Assembly (NCBI GenBank): GCA_030753015.1
Contig: JASMDC010000035.1
Location: 1-36,044 of the forward strand
DNA from: Candidatus Undinarchaeales archaeon
GTDB lineage: Archaea; SpSt-1190; JASMDC01
Reading direction: 5' to 3'
Length of the DNA: 36,044 nucleotides
The notes under the pieces are model-generated. The model made no database searches and was not told the DNA's origin. It saw nothing but the letters and a program-made list of their open reading frames with translations. Of the stretch, positions 1 through 28,554 are shown piece by piece. How positions within the stretch are numbered: the first letter of the stretch is position 1; every line of letters starts with the position of its first letter. A program made the position numbers and the translations under genes.

Positions 1-62
1 CCATGCAGATTTCCCTTTCGACTCCATCCCCTCCCTCTCGTAAGGGGACTTCCCGTCGAAAC

Positions 63-80
63 AAAAAAGAGTTAAATATA
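63..80 (+). promoter_or_regulatory. Archaeal-type promoter (purine-rich BRE + TTAAATAT TATA box) for the giant NlpC/P60 protein gene
   Basis: AAAAAAGAG-TTAAATATA at 63-80, an AT-rich island in GC-rich DNA about 65 nt upstream of ATG 144. Confidence 0.55.
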
Positions 81-143
81 CGACGAACCATAGAATTTTC
101 ATTGAACAGGGGGTGCTCCGTCGGTCGACGGGGCGATGGGACG

Positions 144-3100
144 ATGGCTGGACGTATAGTTCGATCGGCAGCGGTGTTGCTCTGCGCATGGCTCGTACTT
201 GTCGCCATCGCTGCGGACGCTCCCGCTGGCAGCGATAACGTGTGCTGCGAGGGGTCCAGCGGCGCAAGCATGGCCACGCGCCAAGAGTGCACGTCCGGTG
301 GTGGTAAGGTCTCGTCCGACACGGTCCAGGCCCCCGCGAAGCCCGAGGACGATCTCATCTCCGGCAGCGGGACGGGTCCTGCTCCCCTGAACGTCGAGGA
401 CCTCAATTGCGACTCGTCCAAGATGGGCAACATCGATGCCCGTAACATGTGCGAGCATCTCAAGAAGATGGGCTCGTCCTACGATAGCATAGACGGTTTC
501 ATGTTCGGCAAGGACGGGACGGGAGGTCTTATGGGCCACCTGGAGGAGCTGCACGCCGCGCTCGTCAAGCAGTGCGCCAACTGCACCGATACGCACAAGG
601 ACTTCCAGGCGACCACGTACGATGACTGCGCCAAGACCGGCGGCGGTCGCGCCGGGAACCTCGCCTTCGATATCAATGCCATCGCCGCGGCCACCACCGA
701 CCAGTTCGGACCTGCCATCTGTGATGATGCGGGGAAGTTCGTCTGCCTCGCCAACGACGCTCGCAAGTGCATGGCCCGCGAGGGGAGTAAGAGCGGTGCG
801 CTCGAGGGCGCCCGCCAGTGCGGTGTATGTGTGGTGGTATCCTGCTGCGCGGGGAAGAAGGTCCTGCCCGGCGGGTTCGAGGACCCCGATGCCGCGGCCG
901 GAGCGTGCAACGAGGACAAGATAAATCCGAAGGAGGGTCCGTGCCCCGATTCCCGGACGTGGGAGTGCACCGTCAAGGACGGGCCTCTGAAGAAGAAGCA
1001 GAAGGACGATCTTGGGATCCATGGCGCCCGGGGCCTGTGCGATAAGCCCAGTGCCGCCGCCTCGTGCTCGAAGACGGGCCAGGGGAAGCCGCCTGCGGGG
1101 TGCACGTCCGCATCGTCCGGTGCCTGCTCATTGACGGGCAATCCTACCAGATGCAAAAATAAGATCTGGGGCGACAGCCCGTCCACCGATTCGGGGAAGA
1201 GCGACAACTCGGCGATGAAGTGGTGCGTGGACGACGGTGGCGACAAGAAGCGCCGACCGGCCATATGCAAGTACAAGGACGCGTGCAGTGGATGCAAATG
1301 GGAGGAGGGCGGCCCCAGCGAAACGCGCAGCAAGGACTACGACAAGAACGTCCTCGAATGCTACGGTTACAAGGACGCCAATCCCAGGTGCGAGCAGGAG
1401 GGTATCAGCGAGGACGAGGTGAAGAAGCACACATACTGCTTTGCCAACACCGACCAGTACCACCGGTACACGTGCGACAAGGACGGGAACTGCAAGGACA
1501 GGGACTCCGTGAGCGCCGTGGTGGAGGTGACGCCCGCGGAGAACGCCGTCGTGCTCCCTGCTGCCCTCGCCGAGTGCCAGGTGCGGGTGGCCAACCTCAA
1601 GGACGTGTGCACCGTCTCGGGCTCTAAGACCTTCGGCAAGGGCGGGACCGATATTACCCCCTGTGCCCTGGCCCCGATCGTCAAGGAGATGATGGAGTAC
1701 ATCGAGAACTTCCACTACCGTTACCTGGGCTCGGGAGGCGTGAAGGACCAGATCCAGACCATGTGGGGCAAGCTGAAGTGCAAGGGCGAGCTGGGCGGCC
1801 CCGGGGTCGATCCGAAGGCTGCGATGAAGGGGGGCGGGACGGACAACGGCCAGGTCGCCACCCAGGTGGCCGCGGACGAGAAGAAGAAGGAGGAGGAGCG
1901 GGCCAAGAAGGGCTCGGCCGACTCCAGCGCCATCGTCAGCGAGGCGAACACCTGGAAGGGTACGCCTTATGTGTTCGGAGGGAACACCCGCAGGGGTATC
2001 GACTGCTCCGGGTTCACCCAGCAGGTCATGCGCAAGAACGGCGTGAACATCCCACGGACGGCGGCCAGCCAGTGGGCGGCCTGCCAGCGTAGCGGCGGGA
2101 CGTACGTGAGCGCCAACGAGCTCCAGTCGGGCGACCTCCTCTACTTCCAGAATACCTACAAGAAGGGCGTCAGCCACACGGGTATCTACGTGGGCAACGA
2201 CCAGTACGTCCACGCACCCAAGACAGGTGACGTGGTGCGGACCGTGCGGTTCTCCACCTCGCGGCACTACAAGAGCCACTGGAAGGGCGCGTGCCGGTTC
2301 ACGGGCCTGAAGGGCGGCAGCCCGCCGGGCGGGACCACGGGCACGGGAGCCACGCCCGAGCAGATCAAGGCGAACACCATCACCACCGAGATGCGCACCG
2401 TGGGCTCGCTGCGGAAGGAACAGGCCGAGTTCGGTATCGGGATGAAGGAGTTCCAGGGCCGGGTGAAGAAGCTCATCACCCTCGCCAAGGCCGAAAAGGG
2501 GCTGCATTGGGACATCACGACCAAGCACGACGACTTCGGCAAGGCATTCGATCCGGCGACCTTCGTCACCAAGGAGGGCCACCTCCGGCCCACGATGAAC
2601 TCCGGCAAGGACAAGGACGCGCCCATGTACGAGGGGTACGCCTGGTCGATCGCCAAGGAGGACGAGACGTTGTGCCAACTGGAGGCCTCCAAATGCAAGG
2701 ACGCTGATGGCGGCGCCCTCGCTGACACCGAGAAGGCGCGGACCAAGCTCATCGAGCGGACCAAGGCCGCCGTGGAGAAGGACTGTAAGGGCTGCCACCT
2801 CCTGCCCCAGGTCATCGGCAAGTGCAAGAACCCGTCGAAGGCATGCCGGTCCGAGAAGGACAAGTGCGTGGAGGACGGGCTCTCCTCGTCCGTGGACTTC
2901 GACCGCCATCGCAACACGGACGCCTGGGGCGGCTCTGCGCTCAAGACCGTGGAGAACCTCAAGGGACTGCCCGACGAGGTGTTCACCAAGATCGACGGGT
3001 GCTACGATTACGCCATCGACAAGGTCGATCCCGCCCAGGAATGCAAGGGCAAGAACGACGGGTTCAAGTGCTCCGACGGCAAATGCTGCTCGGGCGAGTG

Positions 3101-6032
3101 CACCGATGCGACTGCGTGCAATGCGTACGGTCCCTCGGGCCCCGGCGGTCCCGGCCAGCAACCACCCGGCGGTCCCGCGCCCAGCCCCACTCCGCCCCCG
3201 GGTGAGGAGGAGGGAATGCCCGGTGGCGAGGAGGAAGAGCCGCTTCCCGGAGAGGAAGAGGGAGAGGAGCCTGGCGAGGAGGAAGAGGAAGATCCCGACG
3301 AGGAGGAAGAGGAAGATCCCGGCGAAGAGGAGGAAGAGGGTCCGGACGATCCCGAGGCCCGCCTCTCGTGCCACGATGCACGGCGCACCGATCCCTGCAC
3401 GCTCGACGACGAGGACGGATTGTGCTGCACCGGCGACGACAAGCTCTACTGCCTGGCTGGTGCGGACGAGTGCCCGGACGACCCGACCTTCGCCCAGGAG
3501 TGCGAGGGCCAGGACGACGGTGCTCCCTGCTTCGAGGAGCGCGGGAAGCCACAGGGCATTTGCTGCGTTCCGACGGACGGTGACGTGTCCGTATGCCGGC
3601 TCGGCGCATCCTACTGCCGGACGCGCTTCGACGAGGAGGACCTGGACGCCACCAATCCCGTCGAGTGCAACGAGGCCTGCCAGCAGTGCTTCGACACACC
3701 CAACTCACACTGCCAGGCCCGTGCAGGGGTCTGTGTGTGCGAGATGGGACGCGAGTGGCGGACCACCGGTCAGAAGTGTCCACAGAGCGTCCCCCCGCCC
3801 ATGAACGCCCGCTACCAGGCGTGCTGCGAGGCGCTGTTCGCTGACGTGCTGGTGATCGAGCCGCCCGAGGCCATGGACGGGCCCTTCATCGAGGGTGACG
3901 CGACCTACGCGGCAGGGACCGCCGTGACCCTCCGACTACGGAACCCGGACGCGTCATCGGTCCATGTGTGCGGCGAGTGGTGGCGCGCGTTCGCCTCCGT
4001 CGAGGGCTGGACCGAGGTGCAACAGGTAGAGAAGGACCTCCCTGTCGGGTGCATGGCCGTGCCATCGAGCGCCGCCGTAAACTGGGACCTGGAGGGCGTC
4101 ATCGACGAGGAGGACGAGCCCGGACCGCTGGGGGTCGGGAGCTACAAGGTGGAGATGTGCTACTGTACCGCGGTGGCCGGTGATGACTGCCTGACGGGCG
4201 CACGGCGGTGCGTCGAGCACAGGTTCCGCGTCGTGGACCCCGGGTCCACCTTCGGCGAGGGTGACCTGTCCATGTGCATGACGCCGTCGGGGCTCACCAC
4301 CGGCGTCAGCTACGACCGGTGCCGCACCGTCAGCTCGGGCACGGGATTCTGCTGCTCTCTAGGGTTCGAGGAACGGGCCCTGCCCCTGGACTGCAGCGGT
4401 GTCGAGGACGGGTACGAGGACCCGGTGCTCGACGAGTGCAACGTGCGGAACCCGGGAGAGACGCGGCTGGCCGAACGCTGCCGCGACCTCGCCCTGGAGG
4501 AGGACGTGGCCTGCGAGGAACGGTGCCTGGCCGATAACCCGGGACAATCCTCACAGGAGGTCTGCCTCCGCGACGAGTGCGGTGCTGACCCCCTCCTCAC
4601 CGAGCGTCTGGTCGGGTGCGGACCCTACGAGGAGTGCCTTAAGGTGGAGAAGGCCCTCCATCCCGACCTCAAGGTGACCGTGGACATGGTGAGGGGCAGT
4701 GAGTTCTCCACCACCTTCTACGCGGGTGAGCCCGCTCAGGTCGAGGTGGGGGTGTACAACGCCGGTCAGTTCGGCTTCTCGGGCGCAGTTGAGACCGCCA
4801 TTATCAACCTTGTCGCGTGCGACTGCCCGACCTGTCCCGCAGGCTACACATGCGATTGCGAATGCCAGGAGGAGCGCACCGCCACGGCAACCCGCGAGCT
4901 CACGCTCCTCCGACCGGGAGAGACCTTCCTGTACCGCACCGACACCATACCGCTCGCAGAGTCCCTGGCCAACGGGACCGTCCAGCCGGTAGCGACGGTG
5001 GCCCGGACCGGTTCGCCCGTGGCCGAGGCCCGGGGCGAGCTCGTCCACGTACTGGAGATGGGACAGCTGGAGGTCACCGAGGCCTGGTTCGAGATGGGCG
5101 GTGAGCGTGCCACAAGCGCCTATCCGGGCGCGGAGATAACTGGTATGGCCGAGCTATCCTCGCAATGGTTCCCGCTGAACGTGAGCCTCTACCTGGAGAT
5201 CGATGGTGTCGAGATCGAGGGCACCCGCACTACTGTGGAGGTCACTGAGCCCGTTAGCAGCCTGTCCATGACCACCCTACCCTGGGAGGTGGCCGCCGAT
5301 AGGATCGATGCGTTGGCACGCATGGGTGTCGAGGTGGTATCCCCTGACGGCGACGTCCTCATGAAGCGGACGCTGCTCGAGCAGGGGACGGGAGCAGCGG
5401 ACTGCGGTGGTTCGGTGATGACCACCGCCTGCTACGAGGGCAGGGGGAGCGTCCTCCGTTCCTACCCCGCAGGCTTCCTGGAGGTGCGACCCCTCAGGCT
5501 CCGCGTGACGGACGCGTACTTCATGAACCCCGACGGGAACGCTGTCAACACCCTCTACGAGGACACCGAGATGCGGGCCGTGGTGGTCGTCGACAACGGC
5601 GCCCCCCTCGCCTTCACCGGCGTCCTGGAGGCCATAGTCGCCGGGGACGACGGGGCCGATGTGGCCCAGGGACATGCCCTGGTCGATACCGAGCTCCCGG
5701 CCCGTGGTGGCACAAAGCGTCTAGAGACGCCATCGTTCCAGGCCACCAGGGGCTCGACCTACACCATCCGCGTCCGTGCGGCGGGGACGGACGGTACCGT
5801 CTGGAACGACCAGCTCGTCAGCAAGTATCTCTTTCCCCACGGGACGCTGGTGGTGATCGACGAGGAGGAGGTGGCCGACGAGCGCAACGACATCAGCACG
5901 CACCTCATCTTCACGGCGTGCGAGGTGCGGGTGTCGTGCGGAGCGTGCCTGCCGGTGTGCGAGCTCCATGTGGACCCTACGACCTGTTCCCTCTCGACCC
6001 AGCACTGCGGGTGCGAGTGCAAGCTCAGCTAG
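144..6032 (+). CDS. Giant secreted Cys-rich protein (1962 aa) with internal NlpC/P60 (C40) peptidase domain, acidic linker and C-terminal Ig/CARDB-like beta domains
   Basis: The ORF track starts at 3, but ATG 144 gives a signal peptide (MAGRIVRSAAVLLCAWLVLVAIAADA) downstream of a TATA box. NlpC/P60 motifs GTPYVFGG..GIDCSGF..IPRTA..GDLLYF..SHTGIYVG..VHAP at ~1923-2300. No obvious C-terminal TM anchor. Confidence 0.85.
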   Translation: MAGRIVRSAAVLLCAWLVLVAIAADAPAGSDNVCCEGSSGASMATRQECTSGGGKVSSDTVQAPAKPEDDLISGSGTGPAPLNVEDLNCDSSKMGNIDARNMCEHLKKMGSSYDSIDGFMFGKDGTGGLMGHLEELHAALVKQCANCTDTHKDFQATTYDDCAKTGGGRAGNLAFDINAIAAATTDQFGPAICDDAGKFVCLANDARKCMAREGSKSGALEGARQCGVCVVVSCCAGKKVLPGGFEDPDAAAGACNEDKINPKEGPCPDSRTWECTVKDGPLKKKQKDDLGIHGARGLCDKPSAAASCSKTGQGKPPAGCTSASSGACSLTGNPTRCKNKIWGDSPSTDSGKSDNSAMKWCVDDGGDKKRRPAICKYKDACSGCKWEEGGPSETRSKDYDKNVLECYGYKDANPRCEQEGISEDEVKKHTYCFANTDQYHRYTCDKDGNCKDRDSVSAVVEVTPAENAVVLPAALAECQVRVANLKDVCTVSGSKTFGKGGTDITPCALAPIVKEMMEYIENFHYRYLGSGGVKDQIQTMWGKLKCKGELGGPGVDPKAAMKGGGTDNGQVATQVAADEKKKEEERAKKGSADSSAIVSEANTWKGTPYVFGGNTRRGIDCSGFTQQVMRKNGVNIPRTAASQWAACQRSGGTYVSANELQSGDLLYFQNTYKKGVSHTGIYVGNDQYVHAPKTGDVVRTVRFSTSRHYKSHWKGACRFTGLKGGSPPGGTTGTGATPEQIKANTITTEMRTVGSLRKEQAEFGIGMKEFQGRVKKLITLAKAEKGLHWDITTKHDDFGKAFDPATFVTKEGHLRPTMNSGKDKDAPMYEGYAWSIAKEDETLCQLEASKCKDADGGALADTEKARTKLIERTKAAVEKDCKGCHLLPQVIGKCKNPSKACRSEKDKCVEDGLSSSVDFDRHRNTDAWGGSALKTVENLKGLPDEVFTKIDGCYDYAIDKVDPAQECKGKNDGFKCSDGKCCSGECTDATACNAYGPSGPGGPGQQPPGGPAPSPTPPPGEEEGMPGGEEEEPLPGEEEGEEPGEEEEEDPDEEEEEDPGEEEEEGPDDPEARLSCHDARRTDPCTLDDEDGLCCTGDDKLYCLAGADECPDDPTFAQECEGQDDGAPCFEERGKPQGICCVPTDGDVSVCRLGASYCRTRFDEEDLDATNPVECNEACQQCFDTPNSHCQARAGVCVCEMGREWRTTGQKCPQSVPPPMNARYQACCEALFADVLVIEPPEAMDGPFIEGDATYAAGTAVTLRLRNPDASSVHVCGEWWRAFASVEGWTEVQQVEKDLPVGCMAVPSSAAVNWDLEGVIDEEDEPGPLGVGSYKVEMCYCTAVAGDDCLTGARRCVEHRFRVVDPGSTFGEGDLSMCMTPSGLTTGVSYDRCRTVSSGTGFCCSLGFEERALPLDCSGVEDGYEDPVLDECNVRNPGETRLAERCRDLALEEDVACEERCLADNPGQSSQEVCLRDECGADPLLTERLVGCGPYEECLKVEKALHPDLKVTVDMVRGSEFSTTFYAGEPAQVEVGVYNAGQFGFSGAVETAIINLVACDCPTCPAGYTCDCECQEERTATATRELTLLRPGETFLYRTDTIPLAESLANGTVQPVATVARTGSPVAEARGELVHVLEMGQLEVTEAWFEMGGERATSAYPGAEITGMAELSSQWFPLNVSLYLEIDGVEIEGTRTTVEVTEPVSSLSMTTLPWEVAADRIDALARMGVEVVSPDGDVLMKRTLLEQGTGAADCGGSVMTTACYEGRGSVLRSYPAGFLEVRPLRLRVTDAYFMNPDGNAVNTLYEDTEMRAVVVVDNGAPLAFTGVLEAIVAGDDGADVAQGHALVDTELPARGGTKRLETPSFQATRGSTYTIRVRAAGTDGTVWNDQLVSKYLFPHGTLVVIDEEEVADERNDISTHLIFTACEVRVSCGACLPVCELHVDPTTCSLSTQHCGCECKLS
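3201..3344 (+). repeat. Six tandem 24-nt (8-aa) acidic repeats, consensus GEEEEEDP, in a Pro/Glu linker
   Basis: GEEEGMPG GEEEEPLP GEEEGEEP GEEEEEDP DEEEEEDP GEEEEEGP read directly; units 4 and 5 differ by one nucleotide. Confidence 0.85.
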
Positions 6033-6225: not shown

Positions 6226-7680
6226 CTATTTCGTTTCCTGGTCGCGCTCCAGCTCTTCGCGCCAGAGCCGAGCCGTGGCCTTGATGTGCCCCACGCTGTC
6301 GCCCAGTGTCGTCCAGTTCTCGGGCACCTGCCCGTCGTAGCGCTCACCTGTCCGCAGGACCAGGTCCTCGATGCCCTCGGCGACCTTTTCCAGTTCACCG
6401 GCCTCAGCGGGATCTGTGATGTTCTCGATGGCGTCGTCCCAGTCGCGACCGGTCCATACCTCGAGGGCGTGGGTCAGCGCGGCCACGTAGCCCTCACGCT
6501 TCACCTCCAGCTCCTCCCGGACCACCTTGTCGTGCCCCTGTGAGTACCCGTGCATCCGCTCGAGCGCACCGGTGTTCTCGACACGGAGCACCTCGAACAC
6601 GCGCGAGTAGTCAGCGTTGCGCTCCACCAGCTCGTCGAACACCGTGGCATCCTGGGCGTACACCCGGGCCATGGTGTCGGTGACCTCGTCGATGTCCTCG
6701 AGCATCTTGAAGGCTGCGTTCCCTGCCACCAGCAGCTCCTTGCCCTCGATCTCCTTGTTGGTGAGGGTGCCCAGCTCGTGGACATTGAGCCGGGTCATGA
6801 GGTCGGACACGCCCTCGTAGACGTCCTCGACAGCTCCCTTGTAGGGATCGAGCGCACCATCGAAGCTGGAGCGGAACACCTTCTTACCGATGGTCTTCCA
6901 CACCTTCAGGCCATCGCCGCCGTCCGCTTCGTTCTTGGTACGCCGCAGCGACTCCACGAGGTAGGTGTTGAAGTCGGCGGGGACGGTGAAGTCCAGCGCC
7001 TTCTGGGGGAGTGGGATGACGACATCGGCGTTCTGTGTCTTGCCGAAGCGCTCGGTCTTCACGTCCGAGAGCTGGAGATAGCCATCGCTGTAATCAGTGA
7101 GGATGCCACGGTACTCGCGACCACTTGGGTCCTTGACGGCAACGCCGTACCCGACCAGGTGCTCAAGGTTATCGTCCCAGCTACCGCCGATGTTATCGAA
7201 CACAGCCTGAGCGCCCTCGGTGGTCACCGAGCCACCCATGTACATGCTGGCGCCCATGGAGGTGGCGCGGCTCACGGCGTTCACGGAGTTCGCCAGGGGT
7301 GCCTTGGTCCGGTCCCAGAACTTGTGGAGCCAGCCCCGACCCGTCCCATGCTGCACGAGCTTGGAGAGCTCGGTGTCGCGCTTGGCGAGCTTCTTGTCGC
7401 CCAGGTCCTGCTCGAACCGGGTGACGGAGTACACCTCGCTGGGGGAGTAGATGGTCTGGTTGGCGGCCACGTAGGAGCCGTTGACGTCGAGAAGGATGTT
7501 GTCGTGGTCGTCGATCTGGAGTACCTTGCCTCGGATCTGGTAGTCCTCCGAGGCGGTGTTGAGGGATACGTAATCACCGTCGAAGTCGCCAAGGCACCTG
7601 TCGGTGCCGTTGTACAGGAACCCGCGCGCCAGTAGACCGGCTGTTACCGCGCCGAGCACGAAATGACCTGGATCGAGCAT
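6226..7680 (-). CDS. Hypothetical membrane-anchored protein (484 aa) with two Sm/LSM-like beta segments and a helical acidic C-terminus
   Basis: Long ORF with GC3-rich codons, GGTGAT SD at 7686-7691 and upstream TATA box; N-terminal hydrophobic segment; segments RGKVLQIDDHDNILLDV and LVGYGVAVKDPSGREYRGILTDYSDGYLQLSDV. Confidence 0.75.
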   Translation of the reverse strand: MLDPGHFVLGAVTAGLLARGFLYNGTDRCLGDFDGDYVSLNTASEDYQIRGKVLQIDDHDNILLDVNGSYVAANQTIYSPSEVYSVTRFEQDLGDKKLAKRDTELSKLVQHGTGRGWLHKFWDRTKAPLANSVNAVSRATSMGASMYMGGSVTTEGAQAVFDNIGGSWDDNLEHLVGYGVAVKDPSGREYRGILTDYSDGYLQLSDVKTERFGKTQNADVVIPLPQKALDFTVPADFNTYLVESLRRTKNEADGGDGLKVWKTIGKKVFRSSFDGALDPYKGAVEDVYEGVSDLMTRLNVHELGTLTNKEIEGKELLVAGNAAFKMLEDIDEVTDTMARVYAQDATVFDELVERNADYSRVFEVLRVENTGALERMHGYSQGHDKVVREELEVKREGYVAALTHALEVWTGRDWDDAIENITDPAEAGELEKVAEGIEDLVLRTGERYDGQVPENWTTLGDSVGHIKATARLWREELERDQETK

Positions 7681-7792: not shown

Positions 7793-10700
7793 CTAGGGAT
7801 GGAATCCGTGCAGCCCCTTGTCCTCTCCCTCGTCCTTCTTCTTGGGCTTCCCCCCGGTCGTGTCCGGGGGCTGCTGCGGGGCTTGAGGTGGCTGCGGGAC
7901 CTGTGGTTGGCCCATGGCCCCGGGATGGAGACCGTGGGCTGCTTGCTGAGCACCCTGGTCGCTCGCCGGCTGCTGCCCTGACGGCCCCCACCCGTGCTGT
8001 TGCTGTTGCTGCTGACTTTGTATCTGCGGGGAATGGACGGTCTGGGCGCCGTAGTAGGCCCGCTGGCCGTAGTATTGGCTCCCACCGTAGTACTGCTGTT
8101 GCGGACCGTAGAACTGCTGTTGTCCCTGCTGGTATCCATCCATGGCAGCAGCGCCGGTCGCTTTGTCAATGCCCATACCGGGGAACACCTGCCGCTTGAG
8201 GGCGAGGGCGAGGGCGCCGATGATCACCAGAACCTCGATGAAGTCCTTGATGTTGGCGAGCTCACCGATCTTGTCGATCACAGCGACCGCCCCTACTTCG
8301 ACGGTGACCTTGTGTTCGATCGTGGCATTGGGCATGCCCACAGGCAGAACCTTGATGGTGAGCTCATGCTCCCCCGGTACGACCCCCTGGACGTCCACCG
8401 AGAGCGGTAGGGTGGCGTCCTCGTCGATTACCACCTTATGCCGGGCGGTCCACGATAGCCCTATGGCTTTGGTGTCCGCTTTCAGGGAGATGTCGAACGC
8501 TTCCCGTAATGAGCCCGTGTTCTTCACCGTGAAGGCCAGCAGCCGTGTCTCCTGCTCAACCATCTCGAGCGATCCCGGGCCCTCGATGTCGGCCGAGCAC
8601 ACGCAGTCGGGCGATGTGCGGCAGTCCTCGCCGACGCCCGGTTCGCACGTATCGTCGACGCACTGGTCGGGACCGCAGTCCAGAGCGCATGTCACGCACT
8701 CGGTGGCATTCTCGCACGTCCCGTCGCCGCATCCGCCACGGCAGGAATGGCTCTCCAGATCGCATGTCATGGTGCTCGGGCAGCCGCAGTCCTCGCAGCA
8801 TGAGCTCGAGCCTTCGTCAGGGCTGTCGCATTGACCGTCGCCGCAGGTGACCCGGTTGCATCCTATTTCGTTGGCACCGGCGCGGGACGAGTCGCAGATG
8901 AATCCGAGCATGCACAAGCAGTCCTTGGGGGCGAGGATACAGTCCTCGCCCAGTGCCGTGTCGCACACACCGTTCCCGCGGCAGTCCAGGATCGAGCAGT
9001 CGGCCGGGCATTGGCCGCACTCGTTCTGGCACTTGCCGTCACCGCACTCGGCGGTGGCGCATCGGTCGGATGCGTCACAGGTGAATCCCTTCTCGCACAT
9101 CCCCTCGCATGTGCATGAGTCGCCGCCGGCACCGCGGAGCACGCATCCCCCCGCGCCGTCACACACCCCCAGCTCGCACACGCTCCCGCACGACCGCATC
9201 TCGGGGATGCACTGGCCGCCAAAGCACTTGTCCTCGGTGCAGGGATTCCCGTCATCGCACCCACAATCTTCGGGACAGGTGTTGCAGTCCTCGGTGGCCT
9301 CGCACACGCTGTTGGGGCATTCGGCGGTGCAGGCGTTGTGCGGGTCGGAGGGGCAGGGGTCCTCGTCGTCCGGGATGCCGTCCAGGTCGCGGTCTGACAG
9401 GCACGCGTCGTCGGCACAGATGAACGTGACCTCGAACGCGGTCCTGCAGGCCGTGTCGGGTTCGGTCATATTGCCGCACCGTGCGCACCCGACGGACGGT
9501 TCGCACACGAGACCCTCGCTGGTGCACGCCCTCTCCAGACCGGGGGTGCACACGCCCTCCACGCACGAGAACGTGATGTGGGCGTTCTGGTGACAGAGCC
9601 CGGCGCAGTCGTCGTCGTTGGCGCAGGATTTGCAGGCATTCTTGGGATCGCGTGGGCACGGGTCCGTGTCGTCGCCGAACCCGTCGCCGTCGAAGTCCGG
9701 AGCACATCCCTTGGGTTTGTCCGAGGACGGATCGCACGTCTCGCCCTCCTGACACCCGCAGTCCTGGAGACATCGACCGCAGTTCTCGCTCGGGTCGCAC
9801 ACACCGTTCCCGCACAGCCGCTGACACTTGCCGTCGCGGCACCCGAAGGCCGAGCCGTAGGTGAATGAGGCCGTGCAGTTGATATCTGCTGTACATCCGA
9901 CGCATCCCTCCCGGGAGCACACGGCGCCCGACTCCGTGCAGTTGGTCGAAGGACGCTCCTTGCACACGTAGTTGTCGCATCCCTGCCCGCTGAACACGTT
10001 GTGCTCGCAGGAGTAGCGACAGTTCTCGTTACGGAAGCAGGAGGCCACCTTGCAGAAGAGGCCCTCGATGTCGCAAGCATAGTTGGGTCCGTACTGCGAC
10101 TGGCACTGCTCGTTGGAGATGCAGGAGAGGCAGCCGGACGGGAGCTGGCATACCTGGTTGATACCGGTGGCGGAACAGTCGTGGATGTTCTCTACCTGGA
10201 TCTCGCACCGCATGTCGCTACAGGAATAGTCGAGGAAGGAGTAGCGCTGGCAGGTGTCCTCACAATGGCCGTCCTCGAGGCAGGACACGCACCCGCGCTC
10301 GCTGTTGCACTGGAGGTCCAGATCGCCGCAGGACGACTCCGTCACGTTACAGACGCCAGCGCTGCAGGTGCTGTTGAGGTAGGTGCGTCCGTCCGTCCCG
10401 CCGCACTCGTCGGCGCACCCGGGCGCAGTGGCGCTGCATTCGCCCACCTCGGAGCACGCACCGGGCGCGTTCCCGGAGCAGCAGGGCTGGGCCAGGGAAG
10501 AGCACGCCAGCTGGGCTGTGTCCTGGGCGCACCGCACTTCACCCGCACATCCCGCGCTGCCGCACGCTTTCCCGGGCTCGAATCCCGGTGGCGGTGCCAC
10601 GCACTGGCCACTGCAGCAGAACCCGCTCCCCGAGGCGGTTACGCAGGGTGCGTGGTCGGGCTCGCACGAGCCCTTGCACAGCCAGTCCTTGTTGGGATCG

Positions 10701-13700
10701 TCCACGCACATAGGGGCCGCCTCACCGCAGTTGTCCACCTGGCCGTTGGGGCAAGTGACTGCCTGACTGCATGTCCCGGAACCGGGATCGCACACCAGTT
10801 CCCCGCCGCACTCGCAGTCCTTTGTGCACAGATCGCCCGCGCCCTTGGTCTGGATCGGGACGCATGCTCCCGCTACGCAGCACTGGGAGGCGCAATGGGT
10901 CTCGGACGAGCAACCGCTCATGCACGTGCCCACGGTGCCATCACAAACGTAGTCGCCGCACTCCTGCGCCGTCGTCCCGTCAAACGCGCCGAGACCGGTG
11001 CACGTGGAGGTCATGGTCCGCTCGTCGTTGCACACGTCACTGCCGGCGATGTCGCACTGCCATTCGTTGCTCTGGCATGCAACGAGGCCCCCGGGGCACG
11101 GTTCGGTCCCGCACGCCCCGCGTGGCGTCCATAGGAGGTCGGGCATCGACTGGCACCCGGTCCCGCAACAGTACCCTGCCGTGGACCCGTGCTCACAAGC
11201 GGCGGCGCCGAAGGCGGCGCACGAAGCGCAGCGGTCGAGGCCGCCGATACCGTCCGTATCGAGGCAAGGGAAGAGATCCTGGCAATCGCCGCTCGACGTG
11301 CAGCCCTCCCGGCACTGGCCAGCGGACGGATCGCAACGGTAGGGCGAGCAGTCGCCCCTGCTCTCGAAGGTCCCGGTGGTCGAGCACTGGCCCCGGCGGG
11401 CGAGGTCATCGGAGCATACAGGATCGTCCAGGGAGTCACAGGCCCAGGAGCCGTCCCTACAGGTCACCGCCCCGGTGCAGTTGCCCGCGCCGCACGCGTT
11501 GCTGGGCGTCCATGCGGGCAGCGGCATGCCTTGGCAAGAGTCACCGCAGCAGAATCCCGTCGCACCGTCCAGGTCGCACACAGATGCCTCGTGCTCGACG
11601 CATCCACTGCAGCTGTCGGGCGCTCTGTCGCCGTCCACGTCGATGCAGGCTGCGGGCGCTAGGCATTGCTCGTTGGATACGCACCCGGTGAGGCACTCTC
11701 CCGAGGCATCGTCGCACCGGTAGGGGGCGCACAACTTCGCCTGGGCAGCGTTGAACACACCCGTCAGGCTGCAGGTGGACGACTTGTCCTGGGAACAGGC
11801 CGCACGTCCCGCGGAGCTGCACTGCCAGCTTCCGGTCGCGCACGCCACTATACCGTCGCACGGGGCCTCCCCGCAGGCGACCCCTGGCGTCCAGTCGAAG
11901 ATGAGCATGCCCGCGCACTCTCCACCACAGCAGTACCCGGCCTGGATGCCTTCCTGGCACTGCTTTGTAGCATGGTTGGAGCAGGTGGAACAGGTGTCCA
12001 GCCCGCCCGTGCCGTCGGTGTCGATGCACGACAGTCCGTCCTGGCAATCGGTGTCCGAAGCGCATGCTGCGCCTTCCCCTGCCAGGTCCGTGCAGGTGTT
12101 GGTGTTGCTGTCGCAGAATCCGGCCGCGCACTCGCAGCCCTTCGCACAGTCGGCGCCGTTGGGGAGCTTGGTCACGTAGCACAGGTCGTTGCAGCAGGCA
12201 CCCTCGCCGTCCCCCGTGTAGCACAACCGGCCCGTCTCCATCCCCGCACAGGAGCTGCAAGTGTCAACGAGGCTGTCACCGTCGCTGTCCCGGCACACGT
12301 CGGCGCACAGCTGGCCCACGCAGCACACGCCGCTCTGGCCCATGTTGTCGGTGGCAGGATTGCCGTTGTCCTCACCAGGGTGGCAGGCGCCGCACTGGCC
12401 ACCGGCACCGGTCTTGTCGATGCACAGCCCGCTGGCGCACTGCCCGCCGTCGGTGCAGGTTTGGCCGTCGCGGAGGAGGCAGGAGCCCCCGATGCACTGG
12501 TAGCCGGCCTGGCAGGGGCAGTCAAGGAGGCAAGTGCCGCAGTCCTCGCCCGCCTCGCACTTCCCGTTGCCGCAGCAGACGAGGGCCGCCTCTCCGGCCT
12601 CGTTGCAGTCCGGGTCCGTCCCGAAACACTCGGACGACAGGCAGATGGCGTCGCAGACCGCGGGGCACGCGGTGCACTGGGGGGGCACCGTGGCGCAGAA
12701 CTCGCCCCCGCTGCAGGTGACGCACGTACCGCCCACGCAGGAGCAGGAGTTGGCACTGCCCTCGCACTCGCTGGAGTCGTCCGCGGTGCACGCACCACCG
12801 GAGCAGTCGCTGCACCCGGGGCAGGCGGTGTAGCCGCAGGTGGACGAGCAGGTCCCCTCCGTCGCGGAGCAGATGGCGCCACCGCCCACATCGAGTCCGT
12901 CGCACTGGGTGGACACGCTCGCTCCGTTCTGGCCGTTGCACTCGGCATGGCACTCCGTGTCGCCCTCGGCCGTCCCGTCGGCCTCGCAGCAGTCCTGGGG
13001 ACAGGAGGCGTGGTCCTCGCCCGTTCCGTCATCACAGGAGCCATCACCGCACATGGTCCCTTGCAGGTATGTGACGGTGACACCGTACAGATCGGGAGAG
13101 CTGGTATGGGGAGTGGACAGATCGAACCTGTACTGGAAGTACCGGTTGTCAGCAACACCCGGGGCCTGGGGCGAGGTAATGGCGATGGTCGTGAACTCCT
13201 CGCCCGTGCACGAGGGATCATCGCAGCTCCGCACCTTTGGCGTGAGCTCTAGGAAGCCCCGTGCGTAGTGGTCCTGGATCTCGGCGGCGGAGAGCGCCCT
13301 GTCGTAGATGGCCACCTCGTCGAACGTGTTGGTATCGTACCTGCCCACGAAGAGGTCGTACGAGTTGGTGACGATGGCCCCAGTGAGCTCTTTAGACTTC
13401 TGCATCTGGCCGTTGACGTATATCTTCTGCTGAGCGCCCGCGGGAGCGGTCCGGTCATAGGTGAGCGCCACGTGGTACCATCCGGACGACAGCGTGGTCG
13501 ATATCTTCTGTCGGTTGATCCTGCCGACGACCGAATCGGAGTCGATGGTGAGCGCGTAGGCCCCGGGCTTGACGATACCACGGTCCGGGGCCAACCACAC
13601 GGTCTGCAGGAACCCGTCGTCGTTCGGGCCGCGGTAGGCGATGGCGAACACGGTGTCGGTGACCGGGACGATGACCGGTCTTCGTGCGAATGTGCCCTCG

Positions 13701-15232
13701 AACTGATTGGAATTGATGACGGCAAGCCCGCTCGTCCCGTCCTCGCCGATGGATACCATCTTCACCACTCCATACGTGTTGTGATTGGAGTAGACGAGGG
13801 CGAACAGGTCGTGATCGATGTGGACGATGTCAGGCTCGTACCCTTTCTGGGAATCGGAGGCGAACTGCAGAAGGGCAAGGGTCTCGTCCCCGATCTGGCC
13901 GTTGTCGGCGATGGACACGGTCCTGATCTCTCCGTGGTCGCTGTCCCCCCGGTAGGCGATAGCGAACACGTTCCCCGCCACGTTGACGATCACAGGCTCA
14001 TAGACCTTGTAGCATGTGCCCTCGGCATCTGTGTTGATCGAGAGCGTGTCGATGACCGCGCCGATGGTCCCTTTTTTGTCGATGGACACGGTCTTGAGAT
14101 ACCCGCAGTCGTTGTCCCCCCGATAGACGATGGCGAACACGGTGCCGTCCACATGGCTGATGCGCGGCTCGTATCCCTTCGTTCCGTCGAACTCCAGGGA
14201 GGAGCCGGTCTTGGCCACTCCTGTGCCATCTGCAGAGATGGTCACGGTCTCGAGCACTCCTGCGTCGTTGTCCGTTCGGTAGACCACGGCGTACACGGTG
14301 CCTTTGACATGCACGATATCAGGGTCCAGACCGGTGTCGGCGAACTTCAGGTCACCAAGGACCTTGGAACCAATGGTCCCCGTAGGGCTGATGGACACTG
14401 TCTTGATCTTCCCGTCCTGGTTGTCGAACTTGCTGAACGCGATGGCATATATGTCGCCAGTCACATGAATGAGGACGGGCTGGTCGCCGTGGCCATCGAA
14501 CTCCTTGGTACCAAGTGCCTTGTTCCCGATCGGCCCGTCATCTGCAATGGACACGGTCTTCACGTACCCCTTGTCCGCGGAGGCGCCGCGATAGGCGATG
14601 GCATACACGTCGCCGTCCACGTGGATGATGTCCGCCCAAGAGCCTGCGCTCGTGTCGAACTCAAGGCCGCCCGCAACTGAATCGGGATGCTCCCATTCCG
14701 GTCCGAGCTTCACAAATGCTTCGATCGTAATGGCATCGGTGATGTCCAGGCTAGCAGCGTCCGCGATGGTGACCACGTCGTCCCATCCGCCGAACTGGAT
14801 GCCCGTGCCGAACCGGCCCTCGGCCTCGTACGTGGGACCGCCGGAAGCGGTACCGTGGTTCCCCTGGCCCGAGGCGTCCTGGGGCGCGCCCCCCGTTTCG
14901 TCCAGGTGGAGGAGGAGCACGTTCCCGGTCATGTCGGCACCACCGCGCATGGTCTCGATCCCCCTGTTGTCGGGGAACGGCTTGTCGTACGGCGCGCCCC
15001 GCTCCCACGCGATGGACTGCCACTGGGAGTCTGTCTGGGCGTCGAACACCTTGGATGTGTAGGTGCCGGATCCCCCCGAGGTGAGCTGGACGTGATCGGT
15101 GCTCCACAGGGTGCTTGAGTAGGTGCCCTCATCGAAGCTCTCCTTGTCGTCCGTCTCCCAGACGTCGGCCGCGGCAAGGGCAATGAGCAACAAGAGGACG
15201 ACCACAGGCCGGATATACCTCCCACTACTCAT
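7793..15232 (-). CDS. Giant type I membrane surface protein/adhesin (2479 aa): signal peptide, LamG-like domain with inserted 7-repeat beta-propeller, ~1500-aa Cys-rich repeat stalk, Ig-like domain, TM helix, Gln/Tyr-rich cytoplasmic tail
   Basis: ATG 15232 gives MSSGRYIRPVVVLLLLIALAAA, 24-31 nt after a TTTAATAA box (ORF track extends to 15301). LamG motifs LLLHLDE..DASGQGNHG..TIEAFVK and WYHVALTYD..IYVNG..DEVAIYDRALSAAEI; CGDGxC..ExCxxCPxDC repeats; TM FIEVLVIIGALALAL-KR. Confidence 0.85.
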   Translation of the reverse strand: MSSGRYIRPVVVLLLLIALAAADVWETDDKESFDEGTYSSTLWSTDHVQLTSGGSGTYTSKVFDAQTDSQWQSIAWERGAPYDKPFPDNRGIETMRGGADMTGNVLLLHLDETGGAPQDASGQGNHGTASGGPTYEAEGRFGTGIQFGGWDDVVTIADAASLDITDAITIEAFVKLGPEWEHPDSVAGGLEFDTSAGSWADIIHVDGDVYAIAYRGASADKGYVKTVSIADDGPIGNKALGTKEFDGHGDQPVLIHVTGDIYAIAFSKFDNQDGKIKTVSISPTGTIGSKVLGDLKFADTGLDPDIVHVKGTVYAVVYRTDNDAGVLETVTISADGTGVAKTGSSLEFDGTKGYEPRISHVDGTVFAIVYRGDNDCGYLKTVSIDKKGTIGAVIDTLSINTDAEGTCYKVYEPVIVNVAGNVFAIAYRGDSDHGEIRTVSIADNGQIGDETLALLQFASDSQKGYEPDIVHIDHDLFALVYSNHNTYGVVKMVSIGEDGTSGLAVINSNQFEGTFARRPVIVPVTDTVFAIAYRGPNDDGFLQTVWLAPDRGIVKPGAYALTIDSDSVVGRINRQKISTTLSSGWYHVALTYDRTAPAGAQQKIYVNGQMQKSKELTGAIVTNSYDLFVGRYDTNTFDEVAIYDRALSAAEIQDHYARGFLELTPKVRSCDDPSCTGEEFTTIAITSPQAPGVADNRYFQYRFDLSTPHTSSPDLYGVTVTYLQGTMCGDGSCDDGTGEDHASCPQDCCEADGTAEGDTECHAECNGQNGASVSTQCDGLDVGGGAICSATEGTCSSTCGYTACPGCSDCSGGACTADDSSECEGSANSCSCVGGTCVTCSGGEFCATVPPQCTACPAVCDAICLSSECFGTDPDCNEAGEAALVCCGNGKCEAGEDCGTCLLDCPCQAGYQCIGGSCLLRDGQTCTDGGQCASGLCIDKTGAGGQCGACHPGEDNGNPATDNMGQSGVCCVGQLCADVCRDSDGDSLVDTCSSCAGMETGRLCYTGDGEGACCNDLCYVTKLPNGADCAKGCECAAGFCDSNTNTCTDLAGEGAACASDTDCQDGLSCIDTDGTGGLDTCSTCSNHATKQCQEGIQAGYCCGGECAGMLIFDWTPGVACGEAPCDGIVACATGSWQCSSAGRAACSQDKSSTCSLTGVFNAAQAKLCAPYRCDDASGECLTGCVSNEQCLAPAACIDVDGDRAPDSCSGCVEHEASVCDLDGATGFCCGDSCQGMPLPAWTPSNACGAGNCTGAVTCRDGSWACDSLDDPVCSDDLARRGQCSTTGTFESRGDCSPYRCDPSAGQCREGCTSSGDCQDLFPCLDTDGIGGLDRCASCAAFGAAACEHGSTAGYCCGTGCQSMPDLLWTPRGACGTEPCPGGLVACQSNEWQCDIAGSDVCNDERTMTSTCTGLGAFDGTTAQECGDYVCDGTVGTCMSGCSSETHCASQCCVAGACVPIQTKGAGDLCTKDCECGGELVCDPGSGTCSQAVTCPNGQVDNCGEAAPMCVDDPNKDWLCKGSCEPDHAPCVTASGSGFCCSGQCVAPPPGFEPGKACGSAGCAGEVRCAQDTAQLACSSLAQPCCSGNAPGACSEVGECSATAPGCADECGGTDGRTYLNSTCSAGVCNVTESSCGDLDLQCNSERGCVSCLEDGHCEDTCQRYSFLDYSCSDMRCEIQVENIHDCSATGINQVCQLPSGCLSCISNEQCQSQYGPNYACDIEGLFCKVASCFRNENCRYSCEHNVFSGQGCDNYVCKERPSTNCTESGAVCSREGCVGCTADINCTASFTYGSAFGCRDGKCQRLCGNGVCDPSENCGRCLQDCGCQEGETCDPSSDKPKGCAPDFDGDGFGDDTDPCPRDPKNACKSCANDDDCAGLCHQNAHITFSCVEGVCTPGLERACTSEGLVCEPSVGCARCGNMTEPDTACRTAFEVTFICADDACLSDRDLDGIPDDEDPCPSDPHNACTAECPNSVCEATEDCNTCPEDCGCDDGNPCTEDKCFGGQCIPEMRSCGSVCELGVCDGAGGCVLRGAGGDSCTCEGMCEKGFTCDASDRCATAECGDGKCQNECGQCPADCSILDCRGNGVCDTALGEDCILAPKDCLCMLGFICDSSRAGANEIGCNRVTCGDGQCDSPDEGSSSCCEDCGCPSTMTCDLESHSCRGGCGDGTCENATECVTCALDCGPDQCVDDTCEPGVGEDCRTSPDCVCSADIEGPGSLEMVEQETRLLAFTVKNTGSLREAFDISLKADTKAIGLSWTARHKVVIDEDATLPLSVDVQGVVPGEHELTIKVLPVGMPNATIEHKVTVEVGAVAVIDKIGELANIKDFIEVLVIIGALALALKRQVFPGMGIDKATGAAAMDGYQQGQQQFYGPQQQYYGGSQYYGQRAYYGAQTVHSPQIQSQQQQQQHGWGPSGQQPASDQGAQQAAHGLHPGAMGQPQVPQPPQAPQQPPDTTGGKPKKKDEGEDKGLHGFHP
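10890..12028 (-). repeat. Three tandem ~127-aa Cys-rich repeats, each opening with a CxDxDG..DxC motif
   Basis: Units start at 12028 (CIDTDGTGGLDTC), 11647 (CIDVDGDRAPDSC) and 11266 (CLDTDGIGGLDRC), exactly 381 nt apart; shared G(Y/F)CCG, WTP..ACG, W.C and Y.CD motifs. Confidence 0.85.
13586..14677 (-). repeat. Seven ~52-aa repeats (LEFD..G..PxIxHV.G.VYAIAYRG...G.xKTVSI..xG), probable 7-bladed beta-propeller
   Basis: Seven alignable units counted in the translation; the fold assignment is inference from repeat number and length. Confidence 0.8.
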
Positions 15233-15368
15233 GGGAAGATTTCTGTGCTTGACGATTATTAAAGCTTGGGCCGGCAGGTCATCTGGGGGGCCCGTAAACA
15301 AGCATCCGGTGTCCGCGGTTCTTTTACTGAAGGTTTATCTATAGTGAAATTATCTACCGTATAGGGAG
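15233..15368. promoter_or_regulatory. Divergent promoter region for the two large surface protein genes
   Basis: Minus-strand TTTAATAA at 15256-15263 (24-31 nt before ATG 15232, implying a leaderless mRNA); plus-strand TTTATCTATA at 15334-15343 before ATG 15369. Confidence 0.6.
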
Positions 15369-19598: not shown

Positions 19599-20561
19599 CT
19601 AAGTTTGTCCGTCAATGAATTTGATGTAAGTATTGATGTACTTGTAGATGTCGTCCGGGGAGATGGCTACCGCCAACCCCTTCTGCTCCTTTGCGCACTG
19701 CAGCGCGGCGAACAGAATCGCACCCGTTGTGGGTCCCACGAGAAGGCCCCCCTTCCTTGCTAAAAGGATTCCGGTCCTGTAGGCGTCCTCGTCCGAGACC
19801 GAGATGACCTCGTCAATAAGCGACATGTCAAGTATCTTCGGGACAAGGTCATCCCTCAGACCCGTTATCCTCTTCATCCCAGGCAGGTTGTGCTCTGCCG
19901 TTTCCGGCTCGATCCCTATCACTTTGATATCGGGTTTCTTCTCCTTTAGATACTTGCTCACACCAGTTATCGTCCCACACGTCCCGAACGCAGCGAAGAA
20001 ATAATCGATCTTGCCTCGTGTCTGTCGCCAGATCTCCGGACCCGTCGTCTCGTAGTGCGCTCGAACGTTCAGTTCGTTCTCATACTGGTTCGGGTAGACA
20101 TACGAGCCCTCGTTCCGTGGGCTCTCAGCGATGCTCTTTGCCAAGCCCCGTGCTCCCTCGTTCGGGAACAACGGACACAGGCCGTCGTCCGCCTCCCAGA
20201 GCTCGACGCCCAGGAGTCTCAACAGCTTCTTCTTCTCCTCCGGGATCCGATCAGGTACGGCGATCTCGACGGGGATGCCCCTGGCGTTCGCCAACGATGC
20301 CAAGGCGATGCCGGTATTACCTGAGGAGGGCTCGATCAAGGACTGGCCTTTCTTGATCCCGGCATGCTCCAACATCGATAAGGCGATCCTGTCCTTGACG
20401 GAACCGAAGGGATTGTACCGCTCCAGCTTGAGGTAAATCGGAAAGCCAGGATGTGGATTGATACCCTCGTTCACCCGTACCATCGGTGTCGGATTCTCCG
20501 GGTTCGAGATGAGGCCCTCTATGCTATCGTAGACCCTGAGCTGATCGTTCGGTCCTGTCAT
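19599..20561 (-). CDS. cysK: Cysteine synthase family protein (PLP-dependent, CysK/CysM)
   Basis: KLERYNPFGSVKDRIA (PLP lysine), SSGNTGIALA, NQYEN, HYETTGPEIW, GTCGTITG; GGAGGTG SD. The CysK versus CysM subtype is not resolved. Confidence 0.9.
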   Translation of the reverse strand: MTGPNDQLRVYDSIEGLISNPENPTPMVRVNEGINPHPGFPIYLKLERYNPFGSVKDRIALSMLEHAGIKKGQSLIEPSSGNTGIALASLANARGIPVEIAVPDRIPEEKKKLLRLLGVELWEADDGLCPLFPNEGARGLAKSIAESPRNEGSYVYPNQYENELNVRAHYETTGPEIWRQTRGKIDYFFAAFGTCGTITGVSKYLKEKKPDIKVIGIEPETAEHNLPGMKRITGLRDDLVPKILDMSLIDEVISVSDEDAYRTGILLARKGGLLVGPTTGAILFAALQCAKEQKGLAVAISPDDIYKYINTYIKFIDGQT

Positions 20562-20592
20562 ACATACACCTCCTTGGTATAGAGAGCGGCAC

Positions 20593-20859: not shown

Positions 20860-20860
20860 C

Positions 20861-22357: not shown

Positions 22358-22400
22358 TTCAGTGCCCCCTGCATCGTATGTCAGATTGAAACATCTATTG

Positions 22401-23369: not shown

Positions 23370-23439
23370 CGGGAAGCCGGACAGGACGATCCCCCCTTGG
23401 TAAAGATCACGTTCTCGTTATAATACAAAATTGGCATGT

Positions 23440-26321: not shown

Positions 26322-26333
26322 GTCAAACAGACC

Positions 26334-28552: not shown

Positions 28553-28554
28553 CC

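Follow-up and report, generated by a model that had tools for sequence, protein, structure and literature searches.

An intact NlpC/P60 domain as an exchangeable cassette in a giant, predicted secreted protein of a large-genome Undinarchaeota archaeon

Published work on exported archaeal murein hydrolases aimed at bacteria reportedly includes that of Metcalf et al. in 2014. Direct antagonism of archaea towards bacteria is sparsely documented, and the first functional demonstration of archaeal murein (peptidoglycan) hydrolases dates from 2025 (Strock et al. 2025, PLoS Biol, PMC12352652). That survey reports modular peptidoglycan hydrolases in 175 of 3,706 archaeal genomes, for example M23 + PG_binding_1 proteins of Halogranum salarium, with bacterial killing shown for two Halogranum enzymes and read as antagonism; a signal peptide is present in 32% of the set, and the definition used requires that the protein also has a cell-wall-binding domain of Pfam, NLPC_P60 being among the listed catalytic domains. 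Vigneron et al. 2022 (PMC9723730) describe Woesearchaeota with large lytic murein transglycosylases (GH23) and read them as predatory or 'vampiristic'. The NlpC/P60 enzymes of Trichomonas are reported to target bacteria (compare PMC12612818). Here, we analyse a 36,044-nt stretch of DNA from a Candidatus Undinarchaeales archaeon (contig JASMDC010000035.1), hereafter the window, which is the entire contig C46 of the genome G000 and encodes a giant, predicted secreted protein, P0001, with an NlpC/P60 domain in the middle of its chain. A murein hydrolase in an archaeon is not new in itself; surprising are the giant, cassette-swapping family with three enzyme classes to which P0001 belongs and the unusual host.

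The gene lies in an open frame at 3..6032 (+), with 2009 codons from the first ATG. The gene call of the public collection starts at M48 (nt 144) and thus comprises 144-6032 (+) and 1962 aa; residues are counted throughout from nt 3, the start methionine of the public call being M48. The gene, the domain and its immediate surroundings are as follows.

144..6032, + strand: gene for the 1962-aa giant protein, predicted to be secreted; the orthologue L013 aligns over the full length
1803..1922, + strand: Linker 1, rich in G/K/E/A and with zero Cys; 75% identity between species, the second least conserved segment
1923..2303, + strand: NlpC/P60 (MEROPS C40) cysteine peptidase domain, aa 641-767, delimited by Pfam, PDB profile and model
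2004..2006, + strand: TGC codon of the catalytic Cys668 (DCSG; GIDCSGFT), a Cys in 76 of 78 aligned domains
2082..2084, + strand: Cys694 within an insertion of five residues (WAACQRSGG) that sets the giant family apart, from the domain alignment
2175..2177, + strand: CAC codon of the catalytic His725 (SHTG; GVSHTGIY), a His in 78 of 78 aligned domains
2211..2213, + strand: CAC codon of the third triad residue, His737 (VHAP; QYVHAPKT), a His in 73 of 78 aligned domains
2292..2294, + strand: Cys764 (GACR; GARR in bacterial homologues), presumed disulfide partner of Cys694
2304..2375, + strand: Linker 2, rich in G/S/P/T by composition

PF00877 (NlpC/P60) is the only Pfam family in P0001 at E <= 0.01, with a hidden Markov model match at E 3.2e-26 covering aa 653-761, i.e. 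nt 1959-2285 (91.8 bits in the scan of the protein against a cut-off of 23, and 97.8 bits in the genome scan). The original prediction, made from the sequence alone, had placed such a domain at 1923..2300, and the match falls within these bounds. Its assignment of the catalytic residues, i.e. the Cys at 2004-2006, the His at 2175-2177 and the His of VHAP, was confirmed at codon level, and it had also rightly described flexible linkers on either side. These are of low complexity, G/K/E-rich on the N-terminal and G/S/P/T-rich on the C-terminal flank. In the PDB, 27 distinct sequences match the domain at E <= 1e-5, headed by the C. difficile autolysin Acd24020 (7cfl, 1.7e-21) and followed by the diffocin hub-hydrolase CD1368, SagA, Spr/MepS, LytE and Tn916-like hydrolases. 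Cys668, His725 and His737 align residue-for-residue with these homologues, Cys668 standing opposite the catalytic Cys of 7cfl, CD1368 and 6b8c, and the closest matches in sequence and structure are all murein endopeptidases, at 33-40% identity. In an AlphaFold model based on a 30-row alignment, the domain reaches a predicted local distance difference test score (pLDDT) of 93-98. The model superposes on Acd24020, MepS, LytE and SagA with target-normalised template modelling (TM) scores of 0.78-0.87 and root-mean-square deviations (rmsd) of 1.8-2.6 Å, and Foldseek against 7cfl, 9ubf, 8i2d and 6b8c gave target TM-scores of 0.85-0.87 at an rmsd of 1.8-2.6 Å. The predicted structure has the papain-like alpha+beta NlpC/P60 fold, and profile score, nucleophilic Cys, His plus third polar residue and modelled fold all speak for a genuine member of the family. 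A canonical, intact NlpC/P60 domain with a complete triad is confirmed, far beyond chance. The domain also has a feature of its own, as the 5-residue insertion together with both Cys694 and Cys764 occurs in seven of the nine giant-family rows and in none of the 69 other rows of a 78-row alignment; in the 30-row alignment the C20 pair, from another member of the family, has both Cys with a shorter insertion. The two residues presumably form a disulfide.

The genome G000 comprises 3.85 Mb in 117 contigs and is estimated to be 98.9% complete and 5% contaminated. Neither the archaeal nor the bacterial model found a small-subunit ribosomal RNA in the bin, and the domain of life was therefore judged by TBP, sigma-70 and Mur ligase. 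Profile searches of G000 gave eight TBP repeat matches corresponding to four genes, with the TBP profile positive solely in the four archaeal genomes among the controls, and zero matches to sigma-70 region 2 or to the Mur ligase middle domain (Mur_ligase_M). One TBP gene lies on contig C53 along with two paralogous NlpC/P60 giants, the tetranucleotide profile of the window is typical of the bin (r 0.984 versus a median of 0.985, rank 24 of 55), and a relative of P0001, 84% identical over aa 16-1065, is encoded on a 153.8-kb contig labelled as Candidatus Undinarchaeota archaeon. The gene belongs to an archaeal genome, and the suspicion of an archaeal owner that had been raised from the sequence is borne out by the marker genes; the contig is not bacterial. 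Without a Mur-type ligase, the organism makes neither murein nor pseudomurein. A function as an autolysin for the organism's own wall was likewise ruled out by the missing ligase.

The original prediction had further called the organism DPANN-like, which fits as a taxonomic label, with the relative labelled Undinarchaeota and G000 placed in one phylum and class with 15 small genomes, but not as a description of a reduced genome or lifestyle. Among the 17 species genomes of the phylum, 15 measure 0.6-1.2 Mb, as opposed to 3.85 Mb for G000 and 3.6 Mb for its congener G001, and G000 is not DPANN-like in lifestyle, given its large genome with genes for haem, sirohaem and sulfate assimilation. Such genes are found in the window itself, in a minus-strand cluster at 19599-31915 that includes hemA, hemL, hemB, hemC, cobA-hemD and sirohaem synthase (haem and sirohaem) as well as ATP sulfurylase, 3'-phosphoadenosine-5'-phosphosulfate (PAPS) reductase, sulfite reductase, cysteine synthase and two TauE exporters (assimilatory sulfate reduction). 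We found no description of a non-reduced lineage inside a DPANN phylum, or of multi-megabase Undinarchaeota, in the open-access library searched.

P0001 is one of several related giants. G000 contains four NlpC/P60 matches, each in an open frame of 1965-2252 aa, and G001 contains four orthologues; the 15 remaining genomes of the phylum gave no match to the domain, and one of 24 more distant archaeal genomes gave a marginal one. BLAST among the long open reading frames (ORFs) of G000 shows that the NlpC/P60 giants belong to a larger family sharing a C-terminal module of ~590 aa (C-module). A profile of this module gave 17 full-length matches in G000 and 19 in G001, and no match in the remaining 15 genomes of the phylum. 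Murein hydrolase domains were identified in six of the 17 giants using Pfam and a local profile: NlpC/P60 in four, Peptidase M23 in four (HxxxD + HxH intact in C20, C53b and C41, the first His missing in C21) and SLT-type lytic transglycosylase domains in three, with the motifs ES, GIMQ and GYNRG, which we take to be the family-1 signature. SLT, M23 and NlpC/P60 are combined in one chain in C20, M23 and NlpC/P60 in C53b, and other family members carry a C-type lectin, FG-GAP repeats or a Kazal domain. C25 (2850 aa), the paralogue closest to P0001, aligns collinearly with it before and after the NlpC/P60 domain (aa 78-592 and 792-1042) yet lacks the domain itself, which thus behaves as a cassette. 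It is one of the exchangeable cassettes of the 17 giants, whose family is specific to this genus. In the open-access library searched, we found no account of these proteins as a family.

The C-module model (pLDDT 82.5) displays helical repeats, then four beta-sandwich domains and then a Cys-rich tail. Foldseek with this model returned only generic macroglobulin-type and Ig-like arrays (query-normalised TM-score, TMq, 0.14-0.23), and hence no specific family was assigned; a homologue search with the module gave P0001 itself plus one giant at 48% identity.

The domain is also the best preserved part of the protein. In an end-to-end alignment of P0001 with its orthologue L013, the NlpC/P60 domain is 93.7% identical, the highest value of all segments, compared to 70-75% for the spacers, and the ratio of nonsynonymous to synonymous substitution rates (dN/dS) falls to 0.077 in the domain, below the value of every other region, as against 0.14 for the whole protein. 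The NlpC/P60 domain of P0001 is under purifying selection. Near-identical DNA was recovered from metagenomes of 11 studies, labelled as seawater or marine and, in one run, as hydrothermal vent. Three metatranscriptome runs of two studies also yielded contigs that match the gene at 99% identity or more, and nt 1966-2224 and 2226-2395 are among the stretches covered.

Regarding the origin of the domain, 43,875 of 1.84 billion representative proteins match it at E <= 1e-3, with best single-domain identities of 50-57%. The top relative, P0019 (1545 aa, 57%), combines an SLT-like region, NlpC/P60 and a C-module (42% identity to C41); its NlpC/P60 domain has the same insertion and Cys pair, with Gln as third triad residue. 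Judged by this architecture, P0019 belongs to the giant family as a distant member and comes from another organism; the metagenome collection did not yield its contig, the scan giving only one unrelated, 28%-identical NlpC/P60 match. The next relative, P0033 (434 aa), is an almost Cys-free two-domain protein with M23 and NlpC/P60, an arrangement that recalls C53b and C20 and hints at a co-transfer of both domains. Plasmid and phage records match the domain at below 60% identity, the best (~40-45%) on Bacillus, Clostridium and Ralstonia replicons, and Streptomyces phage minor tail proteins are ~42% identical. A tree of the domain, calculated by a quick method from 78 rows and 122 columns, places seven of the nine giant-family domains together with a Shimodaira-Hasegawa-like approximate likelihood ratio (SH-aLRT) of 91, the node not being starred, and leaves the long-branched C20 pair in an unresolved comb. 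A single origin is neither shown nor excluded by this tree. We read the pattern as one old acquisition from bacteria, probably followed by duplication, shuffling and the gain of a new disulfide.

The remainder of the chain, including the parts that would export and retain the protein, is organised as follows.

72..80, + strand: TATA-box-like TTAAATATA after an A-rich stretch, ~64 nt 5' of the start codon, as read from the sequence
144..221, + strand: predicted signal peptide or signal anchor (MAGRIVRSAAVLLCAWLVLVAIAADAP), the sole Kyte-Doolittle hydrophobic segment of P0001
222..1802, + strand: N-terminal Cys-rich region, to aa 600, with 36 Cys; 42% identity to paralogue C25
2376..3128, + strand: middle region, aa 792-1042, with 14 Cys; 46% identity to paralogue C25, model pLDDT mostly <50
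3129..3356, + strand: Pro/Glu-rich acidic spacer with 33 D+E in 76 aa, the least conserved segment (69.7% identity, 6 gaps)
3357..4259, + strand: second Cys-rich region, aa 1119-1419, with 27 Cys, from BLAST among the giants and composition
4260..6029, + strand: C-terminal module common to 17 giants of G000, with helical repeats, four beta-sandwich domains and a Cys-rich tail (CLPxCELHVD...CxCxC)

The element TTAAATATA may serve as an archaeal promoter. The single hydrophobic segment is N-terminal (aa 48-77 by Kyte-Doolittle) and follows a short basic n-region, in line with a signal peptide that would be cleaved off. With this predicted export signal, 110 Cys in the mature chain and 1962 aa, the protein agrees well with the secreted, Cys-rich scaffold of about 2000 aa initially described. 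For aa 73-600 and 792-1042, no usable Atlas match was obtained and PDB profile searches gave zero matches at E <= 1; the N-terminal Cys-rich region has no Pfam match either, and aa 792-1045 were modelled with low confidence only.

Many of the giants of G000 lie outside the C-module family. Among 40 further ones scanned, we observed three alpha-2-macroglobulins with a thioester domain, Kazal-type inhibitor repeats and a 2366-aa gingipain-like C25 peptidase, as well as TSP3, F5/8-type-C, LamG, VWA and BNR domains. The bacterial-type CW_binding_2 domain is present in five other giants of G000 and absent from P0001 and the scanned members of the C-module family. The giants with these domains are located at L051, L063, L072, L048, L077, L026, L054, L060, L062, L065, L079 and L082. 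In total, 157 stop-to-stop ORFs reach at least 900 aa and account for 18% of the genome. A Cys content of at least 4% is found in 63 of these ORFs; the longest encode 8360 aa (C40:16588-41667) and 4159 aa (C51:104060-116536), the latter with 15% Cys and zero Pfam matches. The extracellular interaction proteome of G000 is unusual for an archaeon. In addition, the small-genome family f4 of the same class (G005, G007, G009 and G011; 0.9-1.2 Mb) has M23 in four of four and SLT in three of four genomes, some of these inside frames of 1203-2297 aa, with neither NlpC/P60 nor the C-module. Murein hydrolases are thus recurrent in the phylum, in different scaffolds.

NlpC/P60 enzymes cut the stem peptides of murein, M23 enzymes its cross-links and SLT enzymes its glycan strands. 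The presence of three unrelated enzyme classes, with no known common substrate but murein, in an organism that has none itself argues for bacterial peptidoglycan as the substrate, and we regard this as probable, whether the purpose is attack or scavenging. As for the use made of it, we lean towards antagonism, with the predicted enzyme acting upon contact with bacteria. The original prediction had proposed an antibacterial, predatory or host-penetration weapon of a DPANN-like organism; the archaeal owner and, through the M23 and SLT sister giants and the missing Mur ligase, the orientation towards murein are upheld, the DPANN-like genome is not. We propose that P0001 would be exported by the Sec route and fold with many disulfides, and that the common C-module, as a stalk, would hold it on or near the cell surface. 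There, the domain may cleave gamma-D-Glu-diamino-acid bonds, or MepS-like cross-links, in the walls of contacted bacteria, which it would breach or lyse jointly with the giants that carry M23 and SLT, in predation, parasitism or competition. An immunity protein would be unnecessary as the archaeon makes no murein. The structural neighbours of the domain include penetration devices and weapons, i.e. the diffocin baseplate hub-hydrolase (8v3w), the Tn916-like hydrolases and the Trichomonas NlpC proteins.

Several observations weigh against this proposal. P0001 has no recognisable murein-binding domain (LysM, SH3b or PG_binding; none at Pfam E <= 0.01), and the hydrophobicity scan reveals no C-terminal membrane segment that would retain it at the surface, while the structural matches of the C-module are generic. 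For ~1,250 residues of P0001 neither a homologue nor a fold was detectable (Pfam, PDB profile and Atlas), and other activities may consequently dominate. Most seawater bacteria are Gram-negative, and their outer membrane shields murein from an external enzyme unless it is opened. In C53b (L022, G000:C53:19371-25265, minus strand), one of the four NlpC/P60 copies, and its orthologue L018 in G001, the catalytic Cys is replaced by Gly (DGAG or DGPG), so that an enzymatic role does not hold for every copy. The metatranscriptome contigs are only a hint that the P0001 gene is transcribed, as contigs from RNA libraries can contain DNA, and no weight is given to stretches of the gene that such contigs do not cover. 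Concerning the C53b pair, the third His of the L018 copy is also replaced, by Asn, and the M23 domain of the C53b protein keeps HxxxD + HxH; the NlpC/P60 domain of L022 and L018 is probably a pseudo-enzyme kept for binding.

Alternatively, the giants may be surface-bound digestive enzymes for murein debris and dead seawater bacteria, from which amino acids and peptides would be harvested. Such a use would be compatible with the recurrence of the organism in seawater and marine metagenomes from 11 studies and with its large, biosynthetically capable genome, and the giant gingipain-like C25 peptidase and the BNR/sialidase-like and lectin giants are as in a degrader; exposed murein fragments could moreover be reached without crossing an outer membrane. 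However, AnmK was not found in G000 and MurQ not above the cut-off, so that the sugar half of murein lacks a dedicated catabolic route for N-acetylmuramic acid (MurNAc). The hydrolases are not small enzymes that could diffuse away but parts of 2000-aa scaffolds that occur alongside adhesin and protease-inhibitor paralogues, and their nearest structural relatives include penetration devices. Neither the missing MurNAc catabolism nor the presence of giants with adhesin, alpha-2-macroglobulin, Kazal and CW_binding_2 domains is decisive, but both argue against full murein catabolism, and we consider scavenging credible though unlikely.

It is improbable that the domain acts on something other than murein, such as a gamma-glutamyl polymer or a surface glycoprotein of the archaeon itself, or that it serves the giant as acyltransferase or self-processing protease, even if the NlpC/P60 superfamily includes poly-gamma-glutamate hydrolases and acyltransferases, a murein-binding domain is missing from P0001 and the family-specific insertion with its Cys pair could alter specificity. 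All closest matches in sequence and structure are murein endopeptidases, and it would be hard to explain why M23 and SLT are found together with NlpC/P60 within these proteins and their family, the chemistry of SLT enzymes being specific to strands of MurNAc and N-acetylglucosamine (GlcNAc); pseudomurein is also out, as no Mur-type ligase is present. Very improbable is a catalytically silent module kept solely for murein or peptide binding in an adhesin. The conservation of C53b (L022) and its orthologue (L018) despite the Cys to Gly replacement indicates that non-catalytic use occurs in the family, but P0001 and its orthologue retain the three triad residues with the surrounding motifs, and the dN/dS of 0.077 is the lowest of any P0001 region. 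Finally, an ordinary bacterial autolysin on mis-binned DNA, to which the 5% contamination estimate and the absence of a domain-diagnostic marker gene from the window itself would lend themselves, is scarcely credible and was ruled out as contamination, considering the TBP genes, the sigma-70 gene found nowhere in the bin, the paralogues with the same C-module and NlpC/P60 next to a TBP gene on C53, the typical tetranucleotide profile, the orthologue of the second species on a 153.8-kb archaeon-labelled contig and the archaeal-type TATA element 5' of the gene.

Returning to antagonism, a bolder and in our view doubtful extension is that the genus represents large-genome, metabolically self-sufficient Undinarchaeota living as contact-dependent predators or ectoparasites of bacteria, with the 17-19 disulfide-stabilised surface giants of the genus as a dedicated attack apparatus. 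The adhesin cassettes would then bind prey, NlpC/P60, M23 and SLT would cut all three murein bond classes, and the alpha-2-macroglobulin and Kazal giants would guard the apparatus from prey proteases. If true, predation on bacteria would be shown for an archaeon for the first time, with a bearing on the origin of the reduced, host-dependent DPANN lifestyle.

As for the neighbourhood of P0001, no small conserved gene lies 3' of it, the next ORFs being a 484-aa ORF on the opposite strand (6226-7680, -), which is located between the two giants of the window and has no Pfam family at E <= 1e-3, and then P0002. The second giant of the window (7793-15301, -) comprises 2502 aa with 9.7% Cys, a signal sequence, repeated beta-propeller-like units and a LamG domain (PF13385, E 4.5e-13), as well as extended arrays of EGF-like repeats rich in Cys, a single C-terminal membrane segment and a tail rich in Gln and Pro, and is unrelated to the C-module family. 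It is followed by a 694-aa protein with GLUG motifs (15369-17453, +; PF07581, E 1.9e-33), which also shows a weak match, below the cut-off (E 5.6e-5), to the N-terminal region of M26 IgA1-type metallopeptidases.

In conclusion, we here describe a different and more elaborate solution than those known for archaeal murein hydrolases, in which three hydrolase classes are carried as exchangeable cassettes in scaffolds of ~2000 aa and kept in two species. The host is odd in its own right, a recurrent seawater archaeon in a DPANN phylum with a genome three to six times the size of those of its relatives. Provided that they are active, the giants could be a source of new lytic enzymes stabilised by disulfides, and the organism would represent a test case for archaeal predation on bacteria.

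Among known systems, P0001 shares with the bacterial NlpC/P60 DL-endopeptidases (Acd24020, 7cfl; B. subtilis LytE and CwlO; E. coli MepS/Spr; E. faecium SagA) the Pfam family, the Cys-His-His triad, the motifs and the predicted fold. Unlike in these enzymes, the domain is found in a murein-less archaeon, mid-chain in a 1962-aa Cys-rich protein without LysM, SH3b or lipoprotein targeting part, and has the insertion and the Cys pair in addition. Penetration proteins, i.e. diffocin CD1368 (8v3w), the Tn916-like hydrolases (4hpe, 9ubf) and phage minor tail or tape-measure lysins, likewise carry murein hydrolases in long structural proteins, where they serve to open a wall locally, and Enterococcus PrgK combines LytM, SLT and CHAP. 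In spirit, the architecture of the giants comes closest to such proteins of phage tails, conjugation systems and diffocin. The M23+SLT+NlpC/P60 arrangement of C20 and the SLT+NlpC/P60 arrangement of P0104, a database match, resemble such combinations, but the giants have no phage, conjugation or contractile-sheath context and their constant part is a lineage-specific beta-sandwich module, within the 17 phylum genomes found only in this genus. A constant module with variable cassettes is also typical of polymorphic toxins and other cassette-swapping families, as in the giants with their 17 copies in G000 and 19 in G001 and their N-terminal or central NlpC/P60, M23, SLT, C-type lectin, FG-GAP and Kazal cassettes. 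In contrast to polymorphic toxins, in which the variable toxin forms the very C-terminus and an immunity gene lies next to it, the constant part of the giants is C-terminal, the cassettes are internal or N-terminal, and there is no adjacent small conserved gene.

A murein-less owner is shared by the laterally acquired NlpC/P60 proteins of Trichomonas vaginalis (6biq, 6bim and 8ev4), which match the model at E ~3e-7 to 5e-7; these are, however, small proteins with bacterial SH3b-type domains from a different kingdom, 26-29% identical to the P0001 domain. The Woesearchaeota of Vigneron et al. (PMC9723730) are DPANN-affiliated with murein-degrading enzymes, as predicted for G000, but these are glycan-cleaving enzymes in genomes of ~1 Mb. 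With the proteins of Strock et al. 2025 (PMC12352652), P0001 shares a murein-less archaeal owner and a bacterially derived murein hydrolase that is secreted or, for P0001, predicted to be so. Under the definition of that survey, P0001 has a listed catalytic domain and lacks the Pfam wall-binding domain, so that a domain-architecture screen of this published type would miss it and overlook its gene family. The proteins of that survey are of ordinary size, whereas the giants presented here are scaffolds of ~2000 aa with up to three catalytic classes.

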